A stretch of DNA of 64,000 nt. Source: an uncultured Bacilli bacterium (GTDB lineage Bacteria; Bacillota_I; Bacilli_A; RF39; UBA660). Made by a program: the position numbers and the translations under genes. The stretch is from positions 158,457 to 222,456 of the forward strand of contig CAKOPC010000002.1 of NCBI GenBank assembly GCA_934098705.1, read 5' to 3'. The notes below the pieces were generated by a model that saw only the letters and a program-made list of their open reading frames with translations, did not search any database and was not told the DNA's origin. Below are positions 1 to 46,338 of the stretch, one piece after another (position 1 is the stretch's first letter; each line of letters opens with the position of its first letter).

Positions 1-1000
1 CTACTGATTTATATAATCCACTTGCATCTCCAACACTTGAATATGTATCAGTAAGTGTTGCAGTAGCACTTAATACATTACTATTATTAGTACCTAATAT
101 TAACGTACTAAGTGATTTTGAATTTGATTTTATACTTAAACTTTCTGTTGTACCATAACCCTTTATTTTAAATGTAAATGTTTCACTATTTGTATCTGCG
201 ACATGTTCCACATTTGTACTTGTTCTTTTCTTTATTATATTATTTGTAAGCATATATTTAATCATATTATTATCTTCTGCAGCACCATCTAAAAATTCTA
301 GTGTTTGTCCTTCTATAGAACCAGTACCATTACAAAATGCTGTTGCAACATCAGTACTAACTGATACAGCATTTGCAACAAATGTAGCACATGCTGAAAC
401 ACTTACTACTTCATACTTTTCACTTCTTGCAATTATTGGAAGTTTATAATTTTCATCTATCCATGCTTTTAATGTGTATGTATGTACTTCACTTCCACTT
501 ATTACATCTGTTAATAAAACATGACTATCCATAATGTTTTCTATATAAAGTGGTTTAAAACTAGATATTAATTCTCCTTTATTTTCTGTAAAGCCTGCCC
601 CTACCTCATTTCCCTTTTTCAAATATATTTTTATGTAGTCTTGTGTTAAAGTATTTCCTTCTTGTATATCTGTTATACCTAAGGCATAATTTACTTTAGT
701 ATCTCCTGTTATATCACTTGTAACAGTAAATGTCATTTGTGAATTTGTATCAGTATTTGCTAAGCCTTCACTATCTGTTTCAGGATACCTATTTTGAATA
801 CTAATATTATTCACATCATTAAATGTAATTACTATATGTCCTGTTTGTATTACATTTTCTTTTGTTCCACTGCCTGTAAATGTATACATAGCATATGAAA
901 GTCCAACCGTTATTACTAAAAGAAGTATTACAAATATTACTGGTATTATATACCTTTTAGTTTGTGATACCCCCCCCCCAGTTGTAAACATTTGTTTCAT
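1..1000 (-). CDS. Secreted TasA/camelysin-like protein with a SipW-cognate-type signal peptide. Partial: the C-terminus runs off the window start.
   Basis: The minus-strand frame is open from an ATG at 1000..998 to position 1 (checked by hand). The N-terminus reads MKQMFTTGGGVSQTKRYIIPVIFVILLLVITVGLSYA|MYTFTGSGTKENVIQTG, which is a signal anchor with S-x-A before a predicted cleavage site. The same architecture and motifs (NALP-like segment, Y-x-L-K-A-W near the C-terminus) occur in the paralogs at 13758, 38014, 39466, 40222, 40992 and 41779. The ORF track does not list it because it is truncated by the window edge. Confidence 0.6.
   Translation of the reverse strand, partial: MKQMFTTGGGVSQTKRYIIPVIFVILLLVITVGLSYAMYTFTGSGTKENVIQTGHIVITFNDVNNISIQNRYPETDSEGLANTDTNSQMTFTVTSDITGDTKVNYALGITDIQEGNTLTQDYIKIYLKKGNEVGAGFTENKGELISSFKPLYIENIMDSHVLLTDVISGSEVHTYTLKAWIDENYKLPIIARSEKYEVVSVSACATFVANAVSVSTDVATAFCNGTGSIEGQTLEFLDGAAEDNNMIKYMLTNNIIKKRTSTNVEHVADTNSETFTFKIKGYGTTESLSIKSNSKSLSTLILGTNNSNVLSATATLTDTYSSVGDASGLYKSV
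970..979 (-). repeat. Homopolymeric tract of 10 C on the plus strand, that is G10 on the coding strand, inside codons 8-11 of the TasA-like paralog.
   Basis: Read directly from the sequence: tgataCCCCCCCCCCagttg. On the minus strand it encodes GGG GGG GGG G and is in frame as sequenced. A 10-bp G/C homopolymer is far outside expectation for a genome of about 25% GC. Confidence 0.8.
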
Positions 1001-1139
1001 AAAACATCCTTCTTTCTTATCTTTTTCATATTTATTTTAACAAAAAAATTTGTTAATTACAAGTAATTTAAAAAAATAGTTTTATGTATAATTTTTAAAT
1101 CATTTTTCATAATAAAAATAGATAAAAAGGAGAAAGTTT

Positions 1140-3104
1140 ATGAAGATTATAAAAAATATATTAAGAGTGTTAGTAATTATATTTTTATTATTTAGTAGTT
1201 TTAATCTTTTTGGCAATATATATGCTAAATTTTCTCCTAAAATAAATATAAAAAGTGCTAATAGTTTTTACATGTATGATAAAGATAAAACTCTTATATA
1301 TCATGGTAGTAGTATTGGTAATAATACTTGGGTTAATTTAGAAGATATGGGAGATTATGCTGTTAAAGCAACTCTTTCAGTTGAAGATAAAGATTTTTTT
1401 AATCATAATGGTTTTAACTATTTAAGAATAATAAAAGCAATTTATGAAAATATAAAACATAGAGAAATAGTTCAAGGTGCCTCAACTATTACTCAGCAAT
1501 ATGCTAAAAACTTATTTTTATCTTTTGATAAAACATGGCAAAGGAAATGGAAAGAAATGTGGCTTACCTTTACTCTTGAGGGCAATTATAATAAAGATGA
1601 AATATTAGAAGGTTATTTAAACACAATAAATTATGGTAATGGCTGTTATGGTATTGCAAGTGCTTCTAAATATTATTTTAATAAAGATGTAAAAGATTTA
1701 AATCTAGCACAAATATCAATACTTGTTGGTATTCCTAATTCTCCAAGTAACTATTCTCCTAATTATAATTATGACTTATCAAAAGAAAGACAGGAAGTTG
1801 TATTAAATAGAATGGTTGATAATGGTTATATAACAGAAAATGAAAAGGATATAGCATATAATACAAAATTAGAGTTTTATAATAAGCATGATACTTATAA
1901 CTTAACAACTCTTTCTTATTATAAAGATGCTGTTATAAAAGAACTTGAAACTATATCAAGTGTACCTGATAATTATATTGAAACAAATGGTCTTAAAATA
2001 TACACAAATCTTGATATGTTAGCGCAAACATCTCTTGAAGATGGTTTAAAGGAAAATAAAAAGGTAAAAAATTCTCAAAGTGCAAAAGTTATGATAAGAA
2101 ATAAAGATGGTGCTATAATCGCTCTTGTTGGAGGTATAAATTATGAAGAATCATCATTTAATAGAGCAACTGATTCTATAAGACAACCTGGTTCTTTAGT
2201 TAAACCGTTTTTATATTATAAAGCTTTAGAGCAAGGTTTTACTGCAAGTAGTAGTTTTGAAAGTGCTAAAACGACTTTTAATTTTAGTGATAAAGATAGT
2301 TATACTCCAACCAACATAAATGGAACATATGCTAATAAAAAAATTACTATGGCCCAAGCATTAGCCTACTCAGACAATATCTATGCAGTTAAAACTCATC
2401 TTTTTTTAGGAGAAGAAAAATTAGTTGAAATTTTAAAAAAATTAAATATTACAACACCTTTAAGCCCTTCCCCATCTCTTGCTCTTGGAACATATGAGGT
2501 AAATATAATTGAACTTGCAAGTGCTTATGCAACTTTAGCAAATGAAGGTATGATGATAAAACCTCATCTAATAAATGAAGTTTATGATATGAATGATAAT
2601 TTATTATATAAATATGAAAATAAAGATGAAGTAAAACTACTTGATGCAAAATTAACCTTTATAATAAGTGAACTTTTAACTGGTACATATGACACTAACT
2701 TAATTGACTATACTTATCCAACCTGCATCAATTTGCTTGATAATATAACTCATAAATACGCCATTAAAAGTGGTAGTACCGATACTGATGCTTGGGTTAT
2801 TGGCTACAACAAAGATTATGTTCTTGCTTCTTGGTCTGGATATGATGACAATAAAAAAATTGAAAATAGTATTGTTTCAAATAATAAAACATCTTGGATA
2901 AAATCAATGGAAATGTACTTAAAAGATAAAAAAGACTCTTGGTATAAAATACCTGAAGGTGTTGTAGGTGTATTAACTGATCCAACAACAGGAGAAGTTG
3001 CAACAGAAGATAGTAAGCATAAAAAAATTCTTTATTATGTAAAAGGTACAGAACCTAATAGTAATAAAGAAATTGATGATTTAATCAAAGATATGGTAAA
3101 CTAA
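1140..3104 (+). CDS. Class A penicillin-binding protein (bifunctional glycosyltransferase/transpeptidase, PBP1A family)
   Basis: It has an N-terminal signal anchor. The GT51 motifs are present: SVEDKDFFNHNGFN, GASTITQQYAKN, RKWKEM and LEGYLN. The transpeptidase motifs are present: SLVK (SxxK), YSDN (SxN) and KSGST (KTG-like). Confidence 0.85.
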   Translation: MKIIKNILRVLVIIFLLFSSFNLFGNIYAKFSPKINIKSANSFYMYDKDKTLIYHGSSIGNNTWVNLEDMGDYAVKATLSVEDKDFFNHNGFNYLRIIKAIYENIKHREIVQGASTITQQYAKNLFLSFDKTWQRKWKEMWLTFTLEGNYNKDEILEGYLNTINYGNGCYGIASASKYYFNKDVKDLNLAQISILVGIPNSPSNYSPNYNYDLSKERQEVVLNRMVDNGYITENEKDIAYNTKLEFYNKHDTYNLTTLSYYKDAVIKELETISSVPDNYIETNGLKIYTNLDMLAQTSLEDGLKENKKVKNSQSAKVMIRNKDGAIIALVGGINYEESSFNRATDSIRQPGSLVKPFLYYKALEQGFTASSSFESAKTTFNFSDKDSYTPTNINGTYANKKITMAQALAYSDNIYAVKTHLFLGEEKLVEILKKLNITTPLSPSPSLALGTYEVNIIELASAYATLANEGMMIKPHLINEVYDMNDNLLYKYENKDEVKLLDAKLTFIISELLTGTYDTNLIDYTYPTCINLLDNITHKYAIKSGSTDTDAWVIGYNKDYVLASWSGYDDNKKIENSIVSNNKTSWIKSMEMYLKDKKDSWYKIPEGVVGVLTDPTTGEVATEDSKHKKILYYVKGTEPNSNKEIDDLIKDMVN

Positions 3105-4934: not shown

Positions 4935-5285
4935 ATGAATAACGGATATTATAACCCAAATTATAATAGTATGATGCCAAATAACAACATGACACCAAGT
5001 AGTAGTAACATGATCCCAAATAGTGATTATAGTAGTGAATTACCATTAGAGCAGTCTTATGTTGAAAATATTTTAAGATTAAATAAAGGTAAAATAGCTA
5101 GTTTTTACATGTCTTACCCTGATTCTAATGAGTGGCGTGATAAAATTTTTACTGGAATTGTTGAACAAGCTGCAAGAGATCATGTTGTAATAAGTGATCC
5201 TAAAACAGGAAAATGGTATATATTACTTTCAATTTATATGAACTTTATAGTATTTGATGAAGAAATAAATTATAAAGTTATTTAA
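4935..5285 (+). CDS. gerQ: Spore coat protein GerQ family
   Basis: The C-terminal domain SYVENILRLNKGKIASFYMSYPDSNEWRDKIFTGIVEQAARDHVVISDPKTGKWYILLSIYMNFIVFDEEI matches the GerQ core (YIENILRLNRGK, AGRDHIILSDPKTG, ITFEEEI). The N-terminus is N/P/S-rich and low in complexity, as in GerQ. An RBS (ggaaaggaga) lies upstream. Confidence 0.7.
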   Translation: MNNGYYNPNYNSMMPNNNMTPSSSNMIPNSDYSSELPLEQSYVENILRLNKGKIASFYMSYPDSNEWRDKIFTGIVEQAARDHVVISDPKTGKWYILLSIYMNFIVFDEEINYKVI

Positions 5286-13757: not shown

Positions 13758-14429
13758 TTAAGCTATTGTTTCAACATTTACCTTAAATTTATAACTATAA
13801 TTTTCTAAAACAATATGTTGTTCTCCATTATCTTCTTTTGTATTTGTAAATAATGAATTTATATCATATCCATCTTTAATCCATAAACGAAGTCTAAAAG
13901 TTTGAGAAAGTTCTCCCCCATCTTCATTTTCAAAAGTAAATATTCCTTGAGTTAAATACTTATAACTTCCTAAATAATCATCAAGATTACTTACTAAAGT
14001 TGGAAAAATATTTTGTACTTCAGTCCCACTACTAAGAGTTGTAAGATAAGCTTTTATAGCATCATCTGGATAATCATAATCTGTTTCTATTCTTTGTAAG
14101 TAAACAACATAATTTATAACTGTTGGTCCATCTGCTGTTGCCTTAACAGTAAACTCATAATAATCATCCATTATTTTACCATCATCATCAGTTAAAGAAC
14201 CATATGCTAAAAAGTTATAATTATCTACTTGTTCTTTGTATGAAAATGAAATTTTAGAAGTTGTAATACTATGTTCTTTATTACCTTCCAAAACTATATT
14301 ATAAGCTGCAAAAGAAAAACCAATTATAAAGACTAACCCAACAAGTATTAAAATAAAAAGCTTTTTTGCATTTTTATTTTCCATATTCATAAAATCACCT
14401 TCGTCTATCATATATATAAATTTTATCAT
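13758..14429 (-). CDS. Secreted TasA/camelysin-like protein with a SipW-cognate-type signal peptide (scattered paralog)
   Basis: It has the signal anchor LFILILVGLVFIIGFSFA|AYNIV. Shared family motifs are ITTSKISFSY and FRLRLWIKDGY (compare LRIWVDANAD and LKAWIDENY in the paralogs). Confidence 0.55.
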   Translation of the reverse strand: MIKFIYMIDEGDFMNMENKNAKKLFILILVGLVFIIGFSFAAYNIVLEGNKEHSITTSKISFSYKEQVDNYNFLAYGSLTDDDGKIMDDYYEFTVKATADGPTVINYVVYLQRIETDYDYPDDAIKAYLTTLSSGTEVQNIFPTLVSNLDDYLGSYKYLTQGIFTFENEDGGELSQTFRLRLWIKDGYDINSLFTNTKEDNGEQHIVLENYSYKFKVNVETIA

Positions 14430-33794: not shown

Positions 33795-34073
33795 CTAAAG
33801 TTTACACCTTAAATGTTTAAAAATTAAATTACCAAGTATAAATGATATTAAAAATATCACTAAAAAATAAATATGTATAATTCCAAAACTTATTAAATTA
33901 TTTGTAATACAAAATATAAAGGTTGCCATTAACATAAATATAATATTTGCTACCACTTTAACTATTTTTGTACTTAAAAAAAGATATTTATAAAAAAGAT
34001 TAAAAAACAAAGAATATAAAAGTCCAAATATAAAATAATAAAATATAGATATTATTTGTATATCAAGTTTCAT
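33795..34073 (-). CDS. yabQ: Spore cortex biosynthesis membrane protein YabQ
   Basis: A small polytopic membrane protein immediately downstream of, and overlapping, yabP. The yabP-yabQ-divIC order is conserved. Confidence 0.6.
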   Translation of the reverse strand: MKLDIQIISIFYYFIFGLLYSLFFNLFYKYLFLSTKIVKVVANIIFMLMATFIFCITNNLISFGIIHIYFLVIFLISFILGNLIFKHLRCKL

Positions 34074-34360
34074 TTAAATAACTTATTAAATATACTATTT
34101 TCTTTATTTGCTTTTTTTTCATCTTCAATATAACTTAAACTTATAAAAGTACCCTTTATTGATACTATACCATCTTTAGTATCAAGTCTTACAATTTCAA
34201 GTCCTAATCCTTTTATAACAAGATAACCCATTGTTGTTTCAATTAAAAATTCTTCTTCATCAAAACTATCAATTTTTAAAACCCCTGTTATATACATACT
34301 TTTTCTTTCATTAACACTGATACCATGATTTTGACTTATACTATTTAAATTTTTATCCAT
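34070..34360 (-). CDS. yabP: Sporulation protein YabP
   Basis: ISVNERKSMYITGVLKIDSFDEEEFLIETTMGYLVIKGLGLEIVRLDTKDGIVSIKGTFISLSY aligns with B. subtilis YabP (VTIRERKHLSVSGVDHIDSFDEEYLLLETNMGKLVIEG...). Confidence 0.85.
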   Translation of the reverse strand: MDKNLNSISQNHGISVNERKSMYITGVLKIDSFDEEEFLIETTMGYLVIKGLGLEIVRLDTKDGIVSIKGTFISLSYIEDEKKANKENSIFNKLFK

Positions 34361-34459: not shown

Positions 34460-34717
34460 TTATTCTGCAGTTTTATATGCTTCTAAAATAGCATTTTCAA
34501 ACATTGTACGAGTTTCAGGATTAATTGGATGAGCTATATCACGATATCCTCCAGTTGCTGTTTTTCTACTTGGCATAGCTATAAATAAACCATTATCGCC
34601 CTCAATTATTCTAATATCATGAACTGCGAAGCTATCATCAATTAGAACTGATGCTATTCCTTTCATACGAGATCCTTCTTTTTCAATTTTACGTACATTG
34701 ACTGATGTTATTTTCAT
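34460..34717 (-). CDS. spoVG: Septation protein SpoVG
   Basis: [52 protein letters not shown] is the canonical SpoVG. Confidence 0.93.
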
Positions 34718-34825: not shown

Positions 34826-35041
34826 TTACTTAATAATTTCTAAACTACCTATAAAAATATCTGCATATGAAAAAGATTTTATAACATCATCATCATTTAT
34901 TTTTATTAAAAATACTGATTTATAACATTTTACTATTTTACCTTCAAAAGTATAAATTAAATTTCTACTACCATTATATCTAAAAGTTAAATTTTTACCC
35001 TGCATACTATTTATATAGTTTCTAATTTTTTCAAGTTGCAT
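34826..35041 (-). CDS. veg: Veg (biofilm-stimulating small protein, DUF1021)
   Basis: The protein is 71 aa. KSVFLIKINDDDVIKSFSYADIFIGSLEI resembles B. subtilis Veg ([28 protein letters not shown]). It is adjacent to yabG. Confidence 0.8.
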   Translation of the reverse strand: MQLEKIRNYINSMQGKNLTFRYNGSRNLIYTFEGKIVKCYKSVFLIKINDDDVIKSFSYADIFIGSLEIIK

Positions 35042-35835
35042 TATCTAGGATACCCAATATACATTGTACCATTTGTTATAATTCCTCCCATACCATCGGT
35101 ACCATATTTTGTCTTTCCAAGTATTTTAATTAAATCAATATCTTTATTTTTACTAGATAAACTAACTGATGCTGCAATTATTGCTGGATCAAGGGCATGA
35201 ATATTAATTCTTTTAGGGCTTGATGCAAAATTAGAACCAGCCTTTATTAATTCTTCATAATTAGACTGACAAGCTCCTGCTATAACAATCAATTTATCAT
35301 GATCTTTTTCATAACTTCTTGCAACCTTTACAGCTTGTATAAAATTATCACTATTTTTATAGTTAGACATGTTAGTATAATCACCATCTTTATTATAGTA
35401 AGCATCATGTCCTGTTATAACTAAAATATCAGGTTTTATTCTCTCTAAAATTTCATTTAAAGATGATGCAACATCTTTTTCCTTTAAAGTAACTCCATAT
35501 GATAATACATTCATTTCTTTATAAAACTTCATGCACCTATCTAAGTAATCTTTATCAGCATCAATATGCAAAATTTTGCCAGGTAAATAAAAGTATTCAT
35601 CACGATTTAAATTAATAAGATCATTCATTCTATTTATAATACTTCGATCATCTTTTATTAAATCTTGTTCTAAAGACTTATCAACATGTACTAAATCACT
35701 TATACTACTATCTGCAATAAGTCTTATATTTACTCCCTTTAAAATAGCTATTTCATTTTCTATATTAATTATTTTAAAAACAGTATCGTTATTATGAGAC
35801 TTTCTAGTAACTAAATCACCTATATTAAAAAGCAT
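35041..35835 (-). CDS. yabG: Sporulation-specific protease YabG
   Basis: The N-terminus MLFNIGDLVTRKSHNNDTVFKIINIENEIAILKGVNIRLIADSSISDLV aligns with B. subtilis YabG (MQFQIGDMVARKSYQMDVLFRIIGIE...AILHGDEVRLIADSDFSDLV). Confidence 0.85.
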   Translation of the reverse strand: MLFNIGDLVTRKSHNNDTVFKIINIENEIAILKGVNIRLIADSSISDLVHVDKSLEQDLIKDDRSIINRMNDLINLNRDEYFYLPGKILHIDADKDYLDRCMKFYKEMNVLSYGVTLKEKDVASSLNEILERIKPDILVITGHDAYYNKDGDYTNMSNYKNSDNFIQAVKVARSYEKDHDKLIVIAGACQSNYEELIKAGSNFASSPKRINIHALDPAIIAASVSLSSKNKDIDLIKILGKTKYGTDGMGGIITNGTMYIGYPR

Positions 35836-35945: not shown

Positions 35946-36761
35946 TTATAAGTTATTAGAAATATCAACAAATACATCAAGAGGTAAATCTTCTGCTCTA
36001 ACAGATAAGTCATAACCATATTTAGATAAAACATTTGAAATCTTATCTAAATCATACCCTTCCAAATTATTTCTAATAGTTTTTCTTTTAAATCTAAAGC
36101 TATCCTTTACTAGCTTAAAGAACAATTTTTCATCTTTTAACTTTAAACTTTCCTTTTTAGTAAATGATATAACAATACTATCAACATTTGGTACAGGAAC
36201 AAAGTTACCTCTGCCAACTTCGAATTCCTTTTTTATGTCAAAATAATAATTCAAGTATACAGTTAAAGAACCATATTCTTTAGTTTTTGGACTAGCACAA
36301 AATCTATCCCCTACTTCTTTTTGAACCATAAATACCATTTTTGATATATCAATATCACTTGTTATTAATTTTTCAATAATAGGAGTTGTAATATAATATG
36401 GTAAGTTACCAAAAACATAAAGATTATCATACTTATATGACTTTAAATCATCCTTTAGATTTCTTTTTAAAAAGTCATCACATATTACTTTACAATTATT
36501 AAAATCTTTTAAATTTTCATATAAATAAGGTATTACTTCCTTATCAATTTCATAGCCTAGTACTCTTTCATAGTCATTACATAATTCTTTAGTTAATCTA
36601 CCATCACCACAACCTATTTCAATAACTAAACTACCTTTTTTTTCTCCAATCACACTAGATATTTTTTTTACAATATTTTCCTGTTTTATAAAATTTTGCC
36701 CGAATCTTTTTTTAAATTTGAAATTCATCTTACACTCTACACCCTTCTTCCATATTAACAT
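35946..36761 (-). CDS. rsmA: 16S rRNA (adenine1518/1519-N6)-dimethyltransferase
   Basis: The motifs FGQNFI, EIGCGDGRLT and GNLPYYITTPII are present. Confidence 0.92.
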   Translation of the reverse strand: MLIWKKGVECKMNFKFKKRFGQNFIKQENIVKKISSVIGEKKGSLVIEIGCGDGRLTKELCNDYERVLGYEIDKEVIPYLYENLKDFNNCKVICDDFLKRNLKDDLKSYKYDNLYVFGNLPYYITTPIIEKLITSDIDISKMVFMVQKEVGDRFCASPKTKEYGSLTVYLNYYFDIKKEFEVGRGNFVPVPNVDSIVISFTKKESLKLKDEKLFFKLVKDSFRFKRKTIRNNLEGYDLDKISNVLSKYGYDLSVRAEDLPLDVFVDISNNL

Positions 36762-36803
36762 TTACTACACATAACACATTATAGCATAAGAAGAGTTATA
36801 TTA

Positions 36804-37328
36804 CTATAACTCTTCCATATTTTGTTCTTTTACGGGCATATTTGTACTATTTTGTCGTAAATTGTCGGTACTTGCTTCTACATAACTTATCATATTTTCA
36901 TCCTTGGATTTTAATAAAGATGAAATAATAAGAAATATATTAGAAGCACTAAGGCAGTATAAAAGTGCCTTAACTGATGATAAATTATCTGCTAAATAAC
37001 TAGGATTATAATTTATCTTATATTTATAATATAAAAGCATATTAGTATCAAATTTAGCTCTTAAACCAATTATTATAATAACTACATATACTAAAACACT
37101 AGCAAAATTAAATAATAAGTTTTCAGCAGATTTTGACTTTTTATAAATTATATTAACAACTGTTAAAATAAATACTAAAGCAAATGGAATAAATATATTA
37201 ATTGCATCAGTTAAACTCTTATCAAGTCTTTTATAAGTAAATAAAATTCCAATAAATATAAGAGCAAATGCAATAAACATTAAAATAAATTTTAAAAAAT
37301 TAAACATCTTAGAAATTATCTTTTTCAT
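36804..37328 (-). CDS. Small polytopic membrane protein; the last gene of the sipW-containing operon
   Basis: The protein is 174 aa with 4 predicted transmembrane helices. It follows the 37331 gene at a 2-nt spacing. Confidence 0.5.
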   Translation of the reverse strand: MKKIISKMFNFLKFILMFIAFALIFIGILFTYKRLDKSLTDAINIFIPFALVFILTVVNIIYKKSKSAENLLFNFASVLVYVVIIIIGLRAKFDTNMLLYYKYKINYNPSYLADNLSSVKALLYCLSASNIFLIISSLLKSKDENMISYVEASTDNLRQNSTNMPVKEQNMEEL

Positions 37329-37330
37329 AC

Positions 37331-38017
37331 TTAATTACCTCCTGCATTATCTAAATACCAATTAGCAATTAAAGTAACATCATTAAGTAATATATCATAA
37401 TTAGTAGTAGTTAAATTAAAATAATTTAGTAAATCATTATAAATAGAAACCTTACTATTAACAGTTGTAAAATAATAACTACTATTATTAAGTAAATGAT
37501 TTTTCATATCTTCTCCATAACTTGATAACATATTTTTATCATTTTCTATTCTGTCATAATAATCATATTTAAGATTACTATTATAATCTTCTATACCCTT
37601 TTTTATAAAGTAATTAGTTTTAAATAAACAGTTATACTGTAATTTACCAATTAACTCATTATTATAATCATAAATGTCCTTATATTTTATATATTCTTTA
37701 TTTAAATTATAATAGCCACCTTTTTCTATTTCTTCTAAACAGGAAATTAAATCAAGCTGTGCAGTTGATAATACAAGTTTATTATCTAAAGATTTAGTAC
37801 TAGTATTTTTAATTTTTTCTTTCATAGATGTTATCTTTTCTTTATACTCCTTAAACCTATCACTATTTGCATAATCAGTATAATATTCATATTTTATTTC
37901 ATTATAATGATATAAATTAATAAATATTAAAAATCCAGATAACATAACTGTTATAATACATAAAAAATCAGTAAAAATACTTGAAAACTCATATAAAACC
38001 TCTTTTAATTCTTTCAT
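37331..38017 (-). CDS. Single-pass membrane protein of unknown function in the sipW operon
   Basis: An N-terminal transmembrane helix is followed by a 180-aa Y/N-rich domain. It overlaps the 38014 gene by 4 nt. Confidence 0.5.
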   Translation of the reverse strand: MKELKEVLYEFSSIFTDFLCIITVMLSGFLIFINLYHYNEIKYEYYTDYANSDRFKEYKEKITSMKEKIKNTSTKSLDNKLVLSTAQLDLISCLEEIEKGGYYNLNKEYIKYKDIYDYNNELIGKLQYNCLFKTNYFIKKGIEDYNSNLKYDYYDRIENDKNMLSSYGEDMKNHLLNNSSYYFTTVNSKVSIYNDLLNYFNLTTTNYDILLNDVTLIANWYLDNAGGN

Positions 38018-38631
38018 GGTAACACCTCTATTCTATATTTATAACCTTTATTAGCACCACTATTACTCCATAATTTTAATACGTAAGTATCTTTATTATT
38101 ATCTTTAGTAACTTCTTTTACTAAATGATTAGAAGTTATATCTTTTAAAGTACCACTTGCAACTTTTTTATTATTTTTATATAAAGCATAAGATATCATT
38201 GTTTTATCTATCATAGGTATATTAACTTCATTTAAAACTTCAGTTGTTATATAAATATTATAATTTAGTTCATGATTATTATCATTCATTATATAAAATT
38301 TATACTCATTAGCTTTATTTTCACTTGTATATTTAGAAAAGGAATTTATTGTAGTACCAAAATCAATTTTAGAATGAATAACAGCAATATCACCATCTTT
38401 TATAGTTTTATAATTTATATATTTTTTAGGCATGAAAAACGCATAATAAATTGAAAATAAAAGTAATAATAAAGATATAATAAATAAAATTATTATAATT
38501 ATATTAATCTTTCTTTTTTCCTTTAATGTAGGGTCTTTTCTATTTTCAACATCATTTGCAGGAATTTCATCATAAAACTCATCATTAAGATTAAATACAC
38601 CTTTTTTATAAGATTTCACAGTCATCATCAC
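38014..38631 (-). CDS. TasA-like paralog with an N-terminal cytoplasmic extension plus a signal anchor
   Basis: It has a 45-aa charged N-terminus, then IIIIILFIISLLLLLFSIYYA|FFMPKKY, which is a transmembrane segment followed by an AFF motif like the CalY AFFSD. The C-terminus LKLWSNSGANKGYKY carries the family W motif. Confidence 0.45.
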   Translation of the reverse strand: MMMTVKSYKKGVFNLNDEFYDEIPANDVENRKDPTLKEKRKINIIIIILFIISLLLLLFSIYYAFFMPKKYINYKTIKDGDIAVIHSKIDFGTTINSFSKYTSENKANEYKFYIMNDNNHELNYNIYITTEVLNEVNIPMIDKTMISYALYKNNKKVASGTLKDITSNHLVKEVTKDNNKDTYVLKLWSNSGANKGYKYRIEVLP

Positions 38632-39451
38632 CCTTTACATCATTGTTAATATCAGTAACATTATTATTAGCGTTATTAGCATTATTAATATCAGTAGTAT
38701 TAACATTGACATTAACATTATTATTATTGTTATCATAATCATCAAGTATTTCTACCTGTCTATTATCAATTCCCATATTATCATATACTTCATCAAGTTT
38801 TTCTTGTAAATCTGGTGAAACATACTTATTGTCTAATATTTTATTTAAATCTTCTCTTTTTGCTTTTGTTTTAGAATCTTTTAAACTTTCCTTAAAAAAT
38901 TTACCTTTCATCATTTTTTCAAAGATTTTAACAATATCATAAACAATAATAGCAAGACAAGGAAGCACAACAACAACAAGCCATCCAAATTTACTAACAA
39001 CAAACTGTTGTATAAACCCAGCCTTTGGTATTTTTAAAATTACTTTTCCAATTACATTAGTTGCAGATACTGGAGATCCATCTGCAGTATTATTAGCATC
39101 TCCTTTAGTATAATAAAAGTAACTACCGTTAACAATTTTTGTATCAATAATTCTATGGGTTATAATAACACCCTTTGAAATATTACCTTCGGATACAAAA
39201 GTAATGGGATCACCTGTTTTATAAATATTATTTTTATCCTTTAACGTAATAACTATATCTCCAGCTTTAATAGTGGGAGTCATACTAGTTGTTAGAATTG
39301 TATAAAAGTTTATTGGAATATCTCCTAATTTATCCTGCTTTTTATAAACATTAATTAATATAATATATCCAATAAGTAAAATTATAACAAGAAGTAAAAT
39401 ATAAAATATAATATTAGATATTATTTTAGCAACCTTTTTTACATTTTTCAT
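38606..39451 (-). CDS. sipW: Signal peptidase I, SipW (archaeal/ER type). It has an approximately 90-aa low-complexity C-terminal tail.
   Basis: An N-terminal transmembrane helix is present. The catalytic Ser is in ILTTSMTPTIKAGDIV and the catalytic His in VIITHRII. GDANNTADG is present, then a C-terminal transmembrane helix (WLVVVVLPCLAIIVY). The extra tail is rich in N/V/D repeats. Confidence 0.8.
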   Translation of the reverse strand: MKNVKKVAKIISNIIFYILLLVIILLIGYIILINVYKKQDKLGDIPINFYTILTTSMTPTIKAGDIVITLKDKNNIYKTGDPITFVSEGNISKGVIITHRIIDTKIVNGSYFYYTKGDANNTADGSPVSATNVIGKVILKIPKAGFIQQFVVSKFGWLVVVVLPCLAIIVYDIVKIFEKMMKGKFFKESLKDSKTKAKREDLNKILDNKYVSPDLQEKLDEVYDNMGIDNRQVEILDDYDNNNNNVNVNVNTTDINNANNANNNVTDINNDVKGDDDCEIL

Positions 39452-39465
39452 AATTTTTCCCCTTT

Positions 39466-40107
39466 TTAATATGCATCAACATTTACATAACAACTAAAAG
39501 TTTTTTTAATTTCATCAAGTTCATAATCCTTAGATAGCCACATTTTAAATGTATATGCCTTTCTTGAATCACTAAGTACTGTTGTTTTATAAAGAACCTT
39601 AGAATTTGGTCTTATACTACTATTAGGTAAGTCAGCATAATTATTTACACTTCTATTATTAATAAGTATTTCCTTGCCATCTTCAAGAAGATATATTCTA
39701 ACATACTTTGAATCAAGTGTTGTAATATTTGGTGTTAATGATATTTCATATGTTATTTTACTCTGTTTTTTAGATTTTATAGATGTTGCAACTCCAAATG
39801 TGAAATATTCTCCCTCTTTAAAATTTTGTTTACCTATATCATCACTTGTTGGAAGAGCATTATCAATATTAATAGCTCTGTTTCCCTCTTCAAAAGAAAA
39901 CAAAATACTTCCTGTTTGAATATAATTATCAACATAAGGGTCATGAATTGAAAAGTTTGAAAATATTAGTAGTGAAAAGAAAGAAACAAGTAAAACAAGT
40001 AATATTAAAAGAACCCAAAGAAAAACATTAGTATCTTTTTTCCTTATTAATATTTCATCTGCTACTTTATCCGCTACCTTTAAATCCTTTTTATTAAATT
40101 CTTCCAT
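39466..40107 (-). CDS. TasA-like paralog. By position it occupies a TapA-like slot upstream of sipW.
   Basis: It has an N-terminal charged segment plus a transmembrane helix. It shares NALPTSDDIGKQ with 40992/41779 (NALPISDDAGKK) and has YTFKMWLSKDYELD. Confidence 0.5.
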   Translation of the reverse strand: MEEFNKKDLKVADKVADEILIRKKDTNVFLWVLLILLVLLVSFFSLLIFSNFSIHDPYVDNYIQTGSILFSFEEGNRAINIDNALPTSDDIGKQNFKEGEYFTFGVATSIKSKKQSKITYEISLTPNITTLDSKYVRIYLLEDGKEILINNRSVNNYADLPNSSIRPNSKVLYKTTVLSDSRKAYTFKMWLSKDYELDEIKKTFSCYVNVDAY

Positions 40108-40170
40108 AGTATCCCTACCTTATTATCTATATATATATTAACACATATTTTTAGTAAAAAAAAGTAAAAT

Positions 40171-40206
40171 ATAAAAAAAACATTACTATTTTTGTATAGT
40201 AATGTT
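40171..40206 (-). terminator. Strong intrinsic terminator after the gene at 40222..40944
   Basis: On the minus strand the perfect 11-bp hairpin aacattactat-N6-atagtaatgtt is followed by a T8 run. Confidence 0.75.
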
Positions 40207-40221
40207 AATGTATATTCTCTA

Positions 40222-40944
40222 TTAAGCTTGTTGTTCAGCGTAAAGTTTAATTTTGAATTCATACTTTTCAGATAAAGATTCATTAGAATGAGTGTTACCA
40301 GTTGAAGTATCTTTAGTAGGTAATACATATTTATCATTTACCCAAGCACGTAGTTCATAAGATTTAAGACCTGAAGCTGTAAATGAATCAGCATCAAGTA
40401 AATAATTAGCTATTCTACCTTCAGCATTATTTGCTTTACCTAAAGTACCTTCAGCTTCAGCTATTGTATTAAATCCAACTCCAGTTGTAGCAGTACCTTT
40501 TAAATATTCAGTACCTTTCTTTAAATTGAAGTTAACTTCACTATCTTGTAAGCATCCATAAGTTACAGCACCATCAGTTGTTTCAGTACAAGCATTTTTT
40601 GTAATTCCTACTTCATAATTAATAGTAGTATTACCACTTAAAGTTGCTGCAACATAAAATTTTAATAATGCAGATTCTCCTGTTGCAGGAGTAATTGCAG
40701 AACCTTTGCCATCTGTCATTGCATATTGATTAGTTAATTTTATTTGTGTTTGATCTGTCAACGCATCTCCAGTTTCTGGGTCTGTTGTTGGATCAACAAC
40801 AACTGAAATACTACCTGTTGTGATTACGTTTTCTTTTGTACCAGTTCCAGTGAAACTATACATAGCATAAGAAACGCCAACAACAACTACGATTAGTACT
40901 AAAACACCAATAACAGAAAGCATTAATGTTTTTTTATTATCCAT
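40222..40944 (-). CDS. Secreted TasA/camelysin-like protein (SipW-cognate signal peptide)
   Basis: LMLSVIGVLVLIVVVVGVSYA|MYSFTGTGTKENVITTGSISV parallels the CalY sequence GGGTFA|FFSDKEVSNNTFAAGTLDL. The protein is T/G/A-rich and beta-type. The C-terminal motif is YELRAWVNDKY. Confidence 0.6.
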   Translation of the reverse strand: MDNKKTLMLSVIGVLVLIVVVVGVSYAMYSFTGTGTKENVITTGSISVVVDPTTDPETGDALTDQTQIKLTNQYAMTDGKGSAITPATGESALLKFYVAATLSGNTTINYEVGITKNACTETTDGAVTYGCLQDSEVNFNLKKGTEYLKGTATTGVGFNTIAEAEGTLGKANNAEGRIANYLLDADSFTASGLKSYELRAWVNDKYVLPTKDTSTGNTHSNESLSEKYEFKIKLYAEQQA

Positions 40945-40991
40945 AATTATTATTCCTTTCTATAAATTAAATTTTATTTGTCAATTATTTA

Positions 40992-41621
40992 TTATTGTCC
41001 TATTGCGTTTACTTTAGAATCAACGTTTACTTTAATTTTGTATTCTTGTTCTTTAATTGTATTAGCATCAGCATTTGCATCAACCCAAATTCTTAAATTA
41101 TAAGTTGTTGTTGCTTCACCTGTTTTTACAGTACCATTTTCATATGCAACACTTGTTTCATAAAGTTTGTATGCATCAGTTCTTAATGCTGATTTGTTAG
41201 AATCAAGTACAACTGCTGACATTAATTGTTTTGGAACTACTTCAGTTTCAGTTGTTGTACCTTTTGTTAAGTAAACTGCAACTGCAGAATCTGCAAGTGT
41301 TGAAGTTTCTTTAGTAATATTGATTTCATATGGTACAGTAACTGTTCCACTTGCTGTTGTTGCAACTGTAAATGTAAATACATTTTTATCACCAGTTAAT
41401 TTCTTTCCAGCATCATCAGAAATTGGTAATGCATTCTCAAGTAAAATACCGTTAGTTGGTTCAGTATAACTCATTGTAATAGTACCTGTTGAAATTGAGT
41501 TATCTTTTCCAGTTGCTCCTGTTGAATAAAGTGCAAAAGATACACCTACTACTGCAACAAGTAATATTGCTACTCCTAATACTGATAAGAATACTTTTCT
41601 TGAATTGTCTTCTTCCATCAT
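40992..41621 (-). CDS. Secreted TasA/camelysin-like protein, candidate major subunit (tandem duplicate A)
   Basis: GVAILLVAVVGVSFA|LYSTGATGKDNSISTGTITMSYTEP. It is about 80% identical to 41779..42408. The C-terminal motif is YNLRIWVDANADA. Confidence 0.6.
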   Translation of the reverse strand: MMEEDNSRKVFLSVLGVAILLVAVVGVSFALYSTGATGKDNSISTGTITMSYTEPTNGILLENALPISDDAGKKLTGDKNVFTFTVATTASGTVTVPYEINITKETSTLADSAVAVYLTKGTTTETEVVPKQLMSAVVLDSNKSALRTDAYKLYETSVAYENGTVKTGEATTTYNLRIWVDANADANTIKEQEYKIKVNVDSKVNAIGQ

Positions 41622-41778
41622 TTTTTTCTATCCTCCTTATATTATGATAATACTATATTTTTTGGGGAATTGCAATATTTTTTTGTTCTATTTTTTTATA
41701 ATTTTTAAAAATTAAATGTTTTATGTAAAGTATAAAAAAGGTATTACCCAAAAGGCAACACCTAAGTATTTAATTCTT

Positions 41779-42408
41779 TTATTTTCCTATTGCGTTTACT
41801 TTAGAATCAACATTTACAAATAGCTTATATGTTTGATCTTTAATAGCGTCAGCATCAGCATTTGCATCAACCCAAATTCTTAAATTATAAGTTGTTGTTG
41901 CTTCACCTGTTTTTACAGTACCATTTTGATATACAACATTTGTACTGTAAAGTTTATAAGAGTCAGTTCTATAAGTAGATTTATTAGCAGTTGTTACAAC
42001 TTGAGACATTAATTTTTTTGCAACAACCTCAGTTTCAGTTGTTGTACCTTTTGTTAAATAAACTGCAACTGCTCCATCAGCAAGAGTTGTTGAAGAATCT
42101 TTAGTTATATTTATTTCATATGGTACAGTAACTGTTCCACTTGCTGTTGCAGAAACTGTAAATGTAAATACATTACCTTCACCCTTCAAACTCTTTCCTT
42201 CTGCATCAGATATTGGTAAAGCATTTGTTAAGTTAATACCATTTGATGGTTCAGTATAACTCATTGTAATAGTACCTGTTGAAATTGAGTTGACTTTTCC
42301 AGTTGAACTAGTTGAATAAAGTGCAAATGATACACCTATTACTGCAACAACTAGAATTGCTACTCCTAACACTGATAAAAGTACCTTTCTTGAACTATTT
42401 TCTTCCAT
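41779..42408 (-). CDS. Secreted TasA/camelysin-like protein, candidate major subunit (tandem duplicate B)
   Basis: GVAILVVAVIGVSFA|LYSTSSTGKVNSISTGTITMSYTEP. The rest is near-identical to 40992..41621. Confidence 0.6.
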   Translation of the reverse strand: MEENSSRKVLLSVLGVAILVVAVIGVSFALYSTSSTGKVNSISTGTITMSYTEPSNGINLTNALPISDAEGKSLKGEGNVFTFTVSATASGTVTVPYEINITKDSSTTLADGAVAVYLTKGTTTETEVVAKKLMSQVVTTANKSTYRTDSYKLYSTNVVYQNGTVKTGEATTTYNLRIWVDANADADAIKDQTYKLFVNVDSKVNAIGK

Positions 42409-42468
42409 GAATCTATCCTCCTTATATTATGATAATACTATAAATTATAGGTTTAAGCAAGATGTTTT

Positions 42469-43227
42469 TTATATTTTCAAATTAAATACCTCTTTAACAT
42501 TATTTGTTGTATCAGTTTGTACTTTTTCTATACTAACACCTCTTACACTACTTATCACCTCAGCAATTAAAGGTATATTTTTAGGTTCATTTTTCTCTCC
42601 CCTAATAGGAGAAAGATAAGGACTATCAGTTTCTAAAATAAAATCTTTACTAGACAGTTCTTTTACAACTTCAAAAAGTTTACTATTTTTAAAAGTTACA
42701 ACCCCACCAATTCCTAGTTTAAATCCAAGTTTAATATACATTTTAGCAACCTCTAAACTTCCTGAAAAACAATGTATTACTCCCTTTACTTTATATTCTT
42801 TTAAAATATTATAAGTATCAAGTGTTGCATCTCTTGAATGAATAACAACAGGCAAATTATACTTTTCAGCAAGTTTTATTTGCCTTATAAATAAATTTTT
42901 TTGTTTCTCTTTTATATAATCACTATTATCATAATGATAATCAAGTCCTATTTCTCCAATACCTACTACTTTTTCTCTATTATTAATTATTACATTTTCT
43001 AAAACGTTAAAATCATCTTCTTGTATATTTAATACTTCTTCTGGATGATACCCTATAGTTATATAAACTTCCTTATATTTTTTACTAAGCTCTACATCCA
43101 TTTTAGTTATTTCCTTGTTTATACCACCAAGTATGAAGTATAAAACACCGACCCTTTCAGCATTTTTTATAACTTCATCAATATTATAATCTTCATTACT
43201 TAAATGTAAATGTGAATCTATATACAT
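42469..43227 (-). CDS. tatD: TatD family hydrolase (YabD)
   Basis: MYIDSHLHL and the TatD metal-binding histidines are present. It lies directly downstream of metS, as does B. subtilis yabD. Confidence 0.85.
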   Translation of the reverse strand: MYIDSHLHLSNEDYNIDEVIKNAERVGVLYFILGGINKEITKMDVELSKKYKEVYITIGYHPEEVLNIQEDDFNVLENVIINNREKVVGIGEIGLDYHYDNSDYIKEKQKNLFIRQIKLAEKYNLPVVIHSRDATLDTYNILKEYKVKGVIHCFSGSLEVAKMYIKLGFKLGIGGVVTFKNSKLFEVVKELSSKDFILETDSPYLSPIRGEKNEPKNIPLIAEVISSVRGVSIEKVQTDTTNNVKEVFNLKI

Positions 43228-45807: not shown

Positions 45808-46338
45808 TTATTCTTCAATATATTTTCCTAAAAATTTAGCAGCTATAGATATAGTTTTTACATCAAAATCATCTAATCTTCTTGTTGTTGACATCATAAT
45901 AACAGCTCCAATAGCATCTCCATTACCTATAATTGGTGCAATAATATAACTTGATAGTTCTAAAACATTTGGTATAAGTGAAAATTCTTTAAAAGAAGGC
46001 TCAAAAACAACATTTCTCTTTTGTATTATTTTATCTATTTCATCTGATATAGACATATTTAAATACTTTTTCTTTAAACTACCCGCTATAGCAACAATAT
46101 TATTTCTATCAACAATTATTATATTTTCATTAACATATAAATTTATACTATCTGCATAATTTTTATAAAAATCTACTAAATCGCCTAAATCTGAATATTT
46201 TTTTAAAATAATATTATCACTATCTAAAAATATTTCAAGAGATTCACCATCTTTTATACGCATACTCTTTCTAATCTCTTTGGGAATTACAATTCGTCCT
46301 AAATCATCTATCCTTCTTACAACTCCTGTTGTTTTCAT
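45808..46338 (-). CDS. spoVT: Stage V sporulation protein T (AbrB-N domain plus GAF)
   Basis: MKTTGVVRRIDDLGRIVIPKEIRKSMRIKDGESLEIF is an AbrB/SpoVT swapped-hairpin N-terminus. The C-terminal 120 aa are GAF-like. It follows mfd, as in Bacillus. Confidence 0.85.
   Translation of the reverse strand: MKTTGVVRRIDDLGRIVIPKEIRKSMRIKDGESLEIFLDSDNIILKKYSDLGDLVDFYKNYADSINLYVNENIIIVDRNNIVAIAGSLKKKYLNMSISDEIDKIIQKRNVVFEPSFKEFSLIPNVLELSSYIIAPIIGNGDAIGAVIMMSTTRRLDDFDVKTISIAAKFLGKYIEE

Follow-up and report, generated by a model that had tools for sequence, protein, structure and literature searches.

The 64,000-nucleotide stretch analysed here (the window; contig CAKOPC010000002.1, positions 158,457 to 222,456, of an uncultured Bacilli bacterium) contains a cluster of eight open reading frames (ORFs), all on the minus strand, which lies between tatD/yabD (42469–43227) and rsmA/ksgA (35946–36761) and encodes a SipW-like signal peptidase, five paralogous proteins, hereafter the F family, and two further proteins, X and Y. 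The base composition across the cluster resembles that of its surroundings. An earlier interpretation made from the letters of this DNA (the sequence-only reading) had described a SipW locus with five TasA-like paralogs inserted between yabD and ksgA; its eight minus-strand ORFs were all found at the coordinates it gave, and the flanking genes were confirmed as tatD and rsmA. The first gene encodes P1 (41779–42408, 209 aa), in which a signal peptide ending in VSFA↓LYST (the arrow marks the predicted cleavage position) is followed by a predicted jelly-roll core. Next come P2 (40992–41621, 209 aa), which is 79% identical to P1, P3 (40222–40944, 240 aa), which belongs to a second subfamily and whose signal peptide ends in VSYA↓MYSFTGTG, and P4 (39466–40107, 213 aa), a member of the pre-sipW subfamily with a longer cytoplasmic N-terminus and a transmembrane (TM) segment. 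The remaining genes encode the signal peptidase (38606–39451, 281 aa), which matches TIGR02228, P5 (38014–38631, 203–205 aa), a divergent post-sipW paralog with one TM segment, X (37331–38017, 228 aa), in which a single N-terminal TM segment is joined to a domain of roughly 190 aa, and Y (36804–37328, 174 aa), with four TM segments.

P1, P2, P3, and P4 were mutually related in BLASTP comparisons (E 1e-18 to 1e-115), and the alignment of the pre-sipW class matched that of the upstream class by hhalign with 100% probability (E 2e-52). The BLASTP match of P5 was marginal; a jackhmmer search started from P5 retrieved every other family member, and hhalign comparison of the P5 class with the upstream class, with the TM segments trimmed, gave 96.8% probability (E 2e-10, 134 columns). 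These results indicate, at the level of sequence, that P5 is a true but divergent F paralog, and that the F paralogs in the cluster fall into four subfamilies. Two more members lie elsewhere in the window on the minus strand: a stand-alone sixth paralog (13758–14429, 223 aa; signal peptide end GFSFA↓AYNIV), which matched the family hidden Markov model (HMM) with E 2e-52, and a seventh, whose N-terminal 333 aa fall within the window (1–1000) and whose full length is about 570 aa. P3, P4, and these two ORFs matched by BLASTP with E 1e-9 to 1e-27 and the family HMM with E 1e-32 to 1e-93. The paralog counts of the sequence-only reading (five for the cluster, at least seven for the window) were thus borne out, whereas the motifs that it had assigned to all five cluster paralogs were so distributed only in part: xL(R/K)xW occurs in 5/5, the signal end S-(F/Y)-A in 3/5, being absent from P4 and P5, and NALP(I/T)SD in 3/5.

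Two side observations concern individual positions and segments of the family. Among the upstream copies, N40 (99%), E53 (86%), and K115 (93%) are conserved in a way that recalls the N-E-K isopeptide triad of BsaA. Position 115 is Lys in the sixth and seventh paralogs, Asn in P3, Arg in P4, and Ala in P1 and P2; a BsaA-like isopeptide lock was considered and, with A115 in P1 and P2, is not established for the F family. The pre-sipW subfamily carries a cytoplasmic N-terminal segment of about 15–37 aa, and residues 1–27 of P4 contain the motif KVADEILIRKK, which is similar in L006 and L010 and conserved in this clade, a pattern that hints at a possible cytoplasmic partner.

The cluster peptidase matched TIGR02228 over model positions 2–156 of 158 with 95.8 bits (cut-off 51.85; E 2.3e-27), indicating that it is a signal peptidase I of the endoplasmic reticulum (ER)/archaeal type (SipW/Sec11 type), in agreement with the SipW label of the sequence-only reading. 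Its score against NF046067, the Bacillus SipW equivalog model, was 94 bits, below the cut-off of 190, so that the match is one of type and not of ortholog. All 69 orthologs compared share residues S56, M57, P59, T98, H99, R100, K116, G117, D118, N120, and D124; these residues form the boxes SMxP (S56), THR (H99), and KGD (D118), with N120 and D124, and a catalytic Lys is missing. By analogy with SipW, Ser-His(-Asp) catalytic roles may be assigned to these residues. The C-terminal part of the protein, about 105 aa past the second TM segment (38606–38930, minus strand), is rich in Asn and Asp and of low complexity, and this tail is variable, with ortholog lengths ranging from 207 to 303 aa. A regular-expression search of the window, which does not cover the rest of the genome, found no LepB-type peptidase.

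The signal peptides of the upstream copies consist of a short polar N-region, the near-invariant hydrophobic stretch VLLSVLGVAILVVAVVGV, and the end S-F-A↓A-F; the hydrophobic segment is conserved at L19 (99%), V23 (95%), G25 (95%), and S27 (96%). The pattern [ST]-x-A↓x-[FYW] was present in 144/175 upstream copies, 46/69 pre-sipW copies, and 2/68 copies of the post-sipW (P5) class. In the window, P1, P2, P3, and the sixth and seventh paralogs have the site, and P4 and P5 are without it. TasA is cut at TWA↓AF by its dedicated ER-type peptidase SipW, and an aromatic residue at P2′ is reported to be a poor fit for LepB-type enzymes, the P2′ Phe of TasA being cited as one reason for its dependence on SipW (PMC10269814). 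The aromatic P2′ residue of the F proteins would make them poor LepB-type substrates, which offers a functional reason for the presence of a peptidase within the cluster. The lack of the motif in P5, and here also in P4, suggests retention in the membrane: P5 is probably an uncleaved membrane anchor, and P4 in this genome perhaps also stays in the membrane.

In a scan of species-representative genomes, 78 loci were found. The order F(1–7)-SipW-(F)-X-Y was seen in 54/54 loci that span tatD to rsmA, with upstream copies mostly numbering 3 or 4. Because this gene order is kept in all spanning loci, the cluster is ancestral and fixed in the lineage and not a recent insertion, and the term "inserted" in the sequence-only reading is misleading. 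Insertion by a mobile element was ruled out by the conserved synteny and the unremarkable base composition, and a phage origin was set aside, no relatives having been found in a viral contig collection.

P1 is preceded by a promoter-like site, TTGCTT-17-TATTAT (42432–42460, minus strand), and a ribosome-binding site AAGGAGG (42417–42423, minus strand), and is followed by an intrinsic terminator (41739–41763, minus strand; hairpin −13.9 kcal/mol, z −4.0, then a U-run). P2 has its own promoter-like site, TTGCAA-17-TATTAT (41647–41675, minus strand), duplicated from P1 together with the ribosome-binding site. The approximately 30 nt 5′ of the start codons of P1 and P2 (TATAGTATTATCATAATATAAGGAGGATAGA) are near-identical (42409–42445 versus 41622–41660, minus strand), which suggests that promoter-proximal DNA and the ribosome-binding site were duplicated along with the gene. 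A likely terminator of P2-P3 (40173–40205, minus strand) consists of an AT-only stem of −10.3 kcal/mol (z −5.3) followed by U8, and a hairpin over the Y stop codon (36785–36816, minus strand; −14.4 kcal/mol, weak U tract) possibly ends the distal genes. Promoter-like sites, hairpins, and spacing together indicate three transcription units, P1, P2-P3, and P4-sipW-P5-X-Y, in place of the two proposed in the sequence-only reading, in which P1 had not been given its terminator nor P2 its copy of the promoter and ribosome-binding site; the terminator that it called strong after P3 is the AT-only stem. The 4-nt overlaps it described within the distal unit hold for P5/X only, as sipW/P5 overlap by 20–26 nt, P4/sipW are separated by 14 nt, and X/Y by 2 nt.

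In 58/65 loci across the genomes, the first F gene carries AAGGAGG and, some 26 nt ahead of its start codon, TTGxxx-17/18-TAxxxT, frequently with an extended −10 element. By consensus matching, this site looks like a strong housekeeping (sigma-A-type) promoter, which argues against sporulation-specific expression.

X and Y were both present in the 54/54 complete loci. Invariant residues are N34, H37, C93, C130, Y207, and W220 in X (alignment A2) and R34, L35, P48, N74, R90, D94, and Y124 in Y (alignment A3). X matched nothing in Pfam, against which 42 members were scanned, or in PDB; for Y, the scan of 42 members against Pfam was likewise negative, and the PDB profile search gave noise alone. 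When 1.84 billion representative proteins were searched exhaustively, relatives of X were found in 47 clusters only, nearly all of full length (about 205–237 aa) with a few shorter fragments, and a word-indexed search found 5 proteins. As judged by these searches, X and Y are specific to this lineage and cluster.

Scans of the eight cluster proteins against Pfam and NCBIfam recognised the peptidase alone. No unrelated family claimed the paralogs; assignment to such a family was what the sequence-only reading had named as refuting it. A database search retrieved 762 relatives of the F proteins; a Pfam domain was found in 0 of the 120 listed, among which the one source name was "hypothetical protein". 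Scattered sub-threshold matches, such as those to DUF7472, DUF7077, and Tai4, in 32 F, 42 X, and 42 Y members were inconsistent.

The F alignment (A1) was compared by hhalign with TasA, using a reference sequence verified against PDB 8aur and a TasA alignment of 42 members. The match had a probability of 22% (E 9.4e-4) with the single TasA sequence and of 42.5% (E 2.6e-4) with the 42-member alignment, over 61 columns covering the signal peptide and the N-terminal strand, compared with E values of 0.09–0.24 in controls with the unrelated X and Y alignments. The same approximately 60 columns were aligned in every comparison, and the register paired S-F-A↓A-Y with T-W-A↓A-F, N-x-I-x-T-G-T-I-x-x-S with N-x-F-A-A-G-T-L-D-L, and I-N-L-x-N-A-L-P with F-D-L-S-N-L-K-P, with the result that the two families coincide at the cleavage site, in the donor-strand region, and at the motif N-L-x-N-x-x-P. 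TasA polymerises through N-terminal donor-strand exchange, with residues 28–38 as the donor strand (PMC9674648).

AlphaFold2 models of P1 reached a predicted local distance difference test score (pLDDT) of 80 and a predicted TM-score (pTM) of 0.69 for the full-length protein, and 84 and 0.80, respectively, for the mature form; in both, the core is a beta-sandwich with pLDDT >90. The first 16 residues past the predicted cleavage position had pLDDT <50, and confidence remained low until about residue 25. This unplaced N-terminal stretch is among the most conserved parts of the family, as shown by N40 (99%), T44 (98%), and G45 (98%). Conservation of an extension that the monomer model cannot place is more readily explained by an inter-subunit strand than by a linker. 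The TasA fibre was the best structural match in PDB for the P1 fold, with scores in the grey zone, and the modelled P1 fold is compatible with that of TasA. In the comparison with the TasA fold suggested by the sequence-only reading, TasA thus ranked best at grey-zone scores, and Foldseek gave nothing significant. The top Foldseek match, the TNF-like domain of Chlamydia Pgp3 (E 3e-3, TM-score about 0.3), was not significant and was rejected.

The seventh paralog extends beyond the window. Window positions 1–1139 are 99.9% identical to contig L084, in which the parts lying just outside the window can be seen. The paralog in L084 is about 570 aa long and combines an N-terminal F module with a C-terminal DUF6273 domain (26.4 bits, cut-off 23.5), and directly 3′ of it lie a bAvd gene (E 1e-8; 36.1 bits, under the cut-off of 40) and a reverse transcriptase gene (RVT_1, 53.4 bits) in the region L084:6271–9860. 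A template repeat (TR, L084:7915–8015) and a variable repeat (VR, L084:8228–8328) of 101 nt differ by 17 mismatches, 17/17 at template adenines, and the VR sits inside the 3′ end of the seventh-paralog gene. A reverse transcriptase, Avd, and adenine-only TR/VR mismatches are the signature of a diversity-generating retroelement (DGR), and they indicate that this paralog is its target. The N-terminal signature of P3 matches that of the DGR-targeted paralog. Strain L083, which is 92% identical, has another C-terminus without a DGR, and in another species a 549-aa protein at L068:16007–17656, downstream of yabG, joins an F module (signal end SYA↓LFTD) to a glycine-rich C-terminal domain. The occurrence of the F module with two different heads suggests that it is a carrier for variable binding domains, which fits a fibre or display scaffold. 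L084 shares the logic of reverse transcriptase, bAvd, and TR/VR with known DGR-diversified gut surface proteins, and differs in that the variable head is fused to an F module with a SipW-type signal. Full-text literature searching that paired DGR or DUF6273 with TasA or SipW gave, among the ten matches listed, TasA/SipW papers alone.

The interpretation that we favour, with modest confidence, is a surface-fibre system similar in kind to TasA/BsaA whose subunits belong to a previously undescribed protein family. The sequence-only reading would thus be right in kind, its notion of an insertion and its proposed sequence tests excepted; in particular, an architecture like that of TasA without its sequence is what was found, namely, a SipW-type peptidase beside the paralogs, a signal end S-F/Y-A↓x-F/Y, and a conserved N-terminal extension. 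Its multi-subunit view is also reasonable.

In the proposed mechanism, the precursors would be exported via Sec and cut past S-F-A by the cluster peptidase, the aromatic P2′ residue making LepB-type cutting poor, as in TasA. Cleavage would free the N-terminal extension A-F/Y-S/T ... N-T-I-T-T-G-T-I-T-M-S-Y, whose insertion, as a donor strand, into the beta-sandwich of the following subunit would build the fibre. Because P1 and P2 both carry a strong sigma-A-type promoter and a perfect Shine-Dalgarno sequence, they would be the major subunits, made in abundance; P3 and P4 would be minor subunits. P5, keeping its TM helix, would anchor the base of the fibre and accept the last donor strand, and X and Y may form a membrane platform for assembly or anchoring. 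The head-bearing paralogs, one of them DGR-diversified, would be adhesins on the fibre.

Several known systems share parts of this design. As in tapA-sipW-tasA of B. subtilis, the gene for a dedicated ER-type SipW peptidase lies next to those of its presumed substrates, and as in TasA, the cleavage site is A↓x-aromatic and a conserved N-terminal strand region lies ahead of the core, here a predicted jelly roll. In contrast to that operon, which has one TasA of 234 aa, the present loci contain four F subfamilies in up to eight copies per locus, with mature proteins of about 180 aa; a TapA-like gene is missing and a membrane-anchored paralog, X, and Y are found instead; and throughout the lineage the locus keeps a fixed place within a housekeeping region. 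Relatives of BsaA and TasA are highly divergent and are often found in operons that combine several paralogs with signal peptidases (PMC11580942). The sipW-bsaA-bsaB-bsaC operon of C. perfringens, by its published description, resembles the present cluster in combining divergent TasA relatives, several paralogs, and a signal peptidase (PMC11580942). Donor-strand exchange has been proposed for BsaA, heteropolymers are considered possible, and its oligomers are membrane-anchored without LPXTG (PMC11580942), whereas the present cluster lacks both a von Willebrand factor A (vWA) protein and any connection with type IV pilus genes. Archaeal bundling pili (AbpA/AbpB) and cannulae (CanX) are likewise jelly-roll, donor-strand-complemented structures with membrane proteins in their operons, and their kinship with TasA is seen only by the most sensitive methods. 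They rely on the general signal peptidase, in contrast to the dedicated enzyme encoded within this cluster, and no counterpart of AbpB or TapA is encoded here. Sortase-assembled Gram-positive pili also have operons with major, minor, and basal anchoring subunits and a dedicated membrane-bound processing enzyme, from which the present cluster differs by its lack of LPXTG and sortase and by N-terminal processing.

A number of results weigh against the assignment to a TasA-like fibre. None of 32 F members scored above the threshold of any Pfam or NCBIfam model, including PF12389, NF046066, and TIGR04088. PF12389 gave no match at E <= 10 in these 32 members, and TIGR04088 none at E <= 1 for the window proteins or E <= 10 for the 32 members, so that the HMM searches suggested in the sequence-only reading came back empty; the NCBIfam TasA model NF046066 matched weakly in 2/32 members, with a best E of 0.0067, far below threshold. 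When the F alignment was broadened to 326 sequences, the hhalign probability against the TasA alignment dropped to 12% (E 2.4e-3). When both signal peptides were removed, the register returned and the significance was lost (0.3%, E 0.2), and because the mature region lacks a significant profile signal, the comparisons suggest sequence homology between F and TasA and do not demonstrate it. By Foldseek, no PDB entry matched P1 at E <= 0.001, TasA fell outside the top 50, and the archaeal TasA-like pilin 7ueg ranked 18 (E 0.028). No relatives of known function could be detected for X or Y, and their proposed role as a platform for assembly or anchoring is drawn from conservation and position. Cleavage by the cluster peptidase would likewise follow from gene context and motif. 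The structural models are of monomers, and polymerisation of the F proteins is proposed by analogy with TasA.

The best of the competing explanations, unlikely in our estimation, is that the F proteins are processed by SipW and secreted or displayed at the surface without polymerising, as a coat or as a set of glycan-binding lectins or adhesins that varies in copy number to provide diversity of antigens or ligands, with X and Y holding them at the membrane. The range of copy numbers from 1 to 7, the paralog with a DGR-diversified ligand-binding head, and the indirect case for polymerisation would all suit such proteins. However, the N-terminal extension is one of the parts of highest conservation (N40 99%, T44/G45 98%) and is unplaced in the monomer model, it is in register with the donor-strand region of TasA, and the combination of cleavable copies with one uncleavable copy would have no obvious purpose for monomers.

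That the fibres or coat form a spore-surface structure made during sporulation is far less probable. TasA was first described as the spore-coat-associated CotN and has a history of association with spores (PMC9674648), and the neighbours of the cluster include yabG, spoVG, yabP, yabQ, spoVT, and a GerQ-like gene. Nevertheless, this neighbourhood is an ordinary Bacillota backbone, and 58/65 loci have a housekeeping-like site, and not one for sigma-E, -K, -F, or -G, as judged by consensus matching, so that the spore-surface role offered in the sequence-only reading is disfavoured.

Still less probable, and hardly to be expected, is that the N-terminal helix is retained in pilin-like or type II membrane proteins with packed helices while the peptidase serves other substrates: the hydrophobic segment is more conserved than is usual in a signal peptide (L19 99%, S27 96%) and the sole PDB sequence matches are the archaeal pilins 6nav and 8tib, but these matches have E values of 0.3–0.5 and rest on the hydrophobic helix, a canonical −3/−1 signal peptidase I site directly follows the helix, G/A at −1 and a class III signal motif are missing (the pre-helix residues being K-Q/K/V), genes for a prepilin peptidase, an ATPase, or a platform protein are lacking from the cluster, and signal peptides of dedicated peptidases are known to be conserved, TIGR04088 having been modelled for that reason. 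The helix-driven matches to 6nav and 8tib (E 0.3–0.5) were accordingly rejected as evidence of homology, as were a type IV pilin, for which the class III signal and pilus machinery genes are missing from the cluster, and a sortase pilin, since none of the paralogs has an LPXTG-like motif with a C-terminal anchor and the cluster has no sortase. The related orders RFN20 and ML615J-28, in a report that does not name RF39, were described as lacking sortases (PMC10868615).

Returning to the TasA/BsaA-type fibre, a more specific and speculative version, which we consider unlikely to hold in full, is that P5, X, and Y form a new sortase-independent machine that both assembles heteropolymeric donor-strand fibres and anchors them at the membrane throughout an uncultured gut order, probably RF39, with the fibres as a scaffold for adhesin heads that include one rewritten by a DGR. 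If so, this would be the first link of targeted protein hypermutation to a TasA-like fibre. The carrier lineage is uncultured. If the fibre interpretation is right, the locus would provide a candidate for the main surface appendage of this gut lineage and a handle for finding and isolating its members, and the SipW/TasA principle would extend to a family that is invisible to current Pfam/NCBIfam models. X and Y may then explain how fibres are anchored without sortase or TapA, and a DGR head joined to a fibre module would suggest how these gut bacteria vary their binding specificity.

The metagenome-assembled genomes (MAGs) bearing the locus are labelled uncultured Bacilli, "Tenericutes", Mycoplasma sp. 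CAG:611, Clostridium sp. CAG:451, and Candidatus Onthousia; in GTDB, family CAG-611 is placed within order RF39 (PMC8035907). The carriers are probably uncultured gut Bacilli of order RF39. The same locus was also seen in L007, L013, L068, L082, and others, whose records are labelled Bacteroidaceae, Lachnospiraceae, Muribaculaceae, or Clostridia, and the shared order metG-tatD-...-rsmA-yabG suggests that these divergent MAG labels are probably binning or naming errors.

Sporulation-associated genes in the window are GerQ-like, yabQ/yabP, spoVG, yabG, and spoVT, at 4935–5285 on the plus strand and at 33795–34360, 34460–34717, 35041–35835, and 45808–46338 on the minus strand. A class A penicillin-binding protein gene lies at 1140–3104. 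These genes suggest that a peptidoglycan wall is probable and sporulation possible in this organism, despite MAG labels such as "Tenericutes" and "Mycoplasma".

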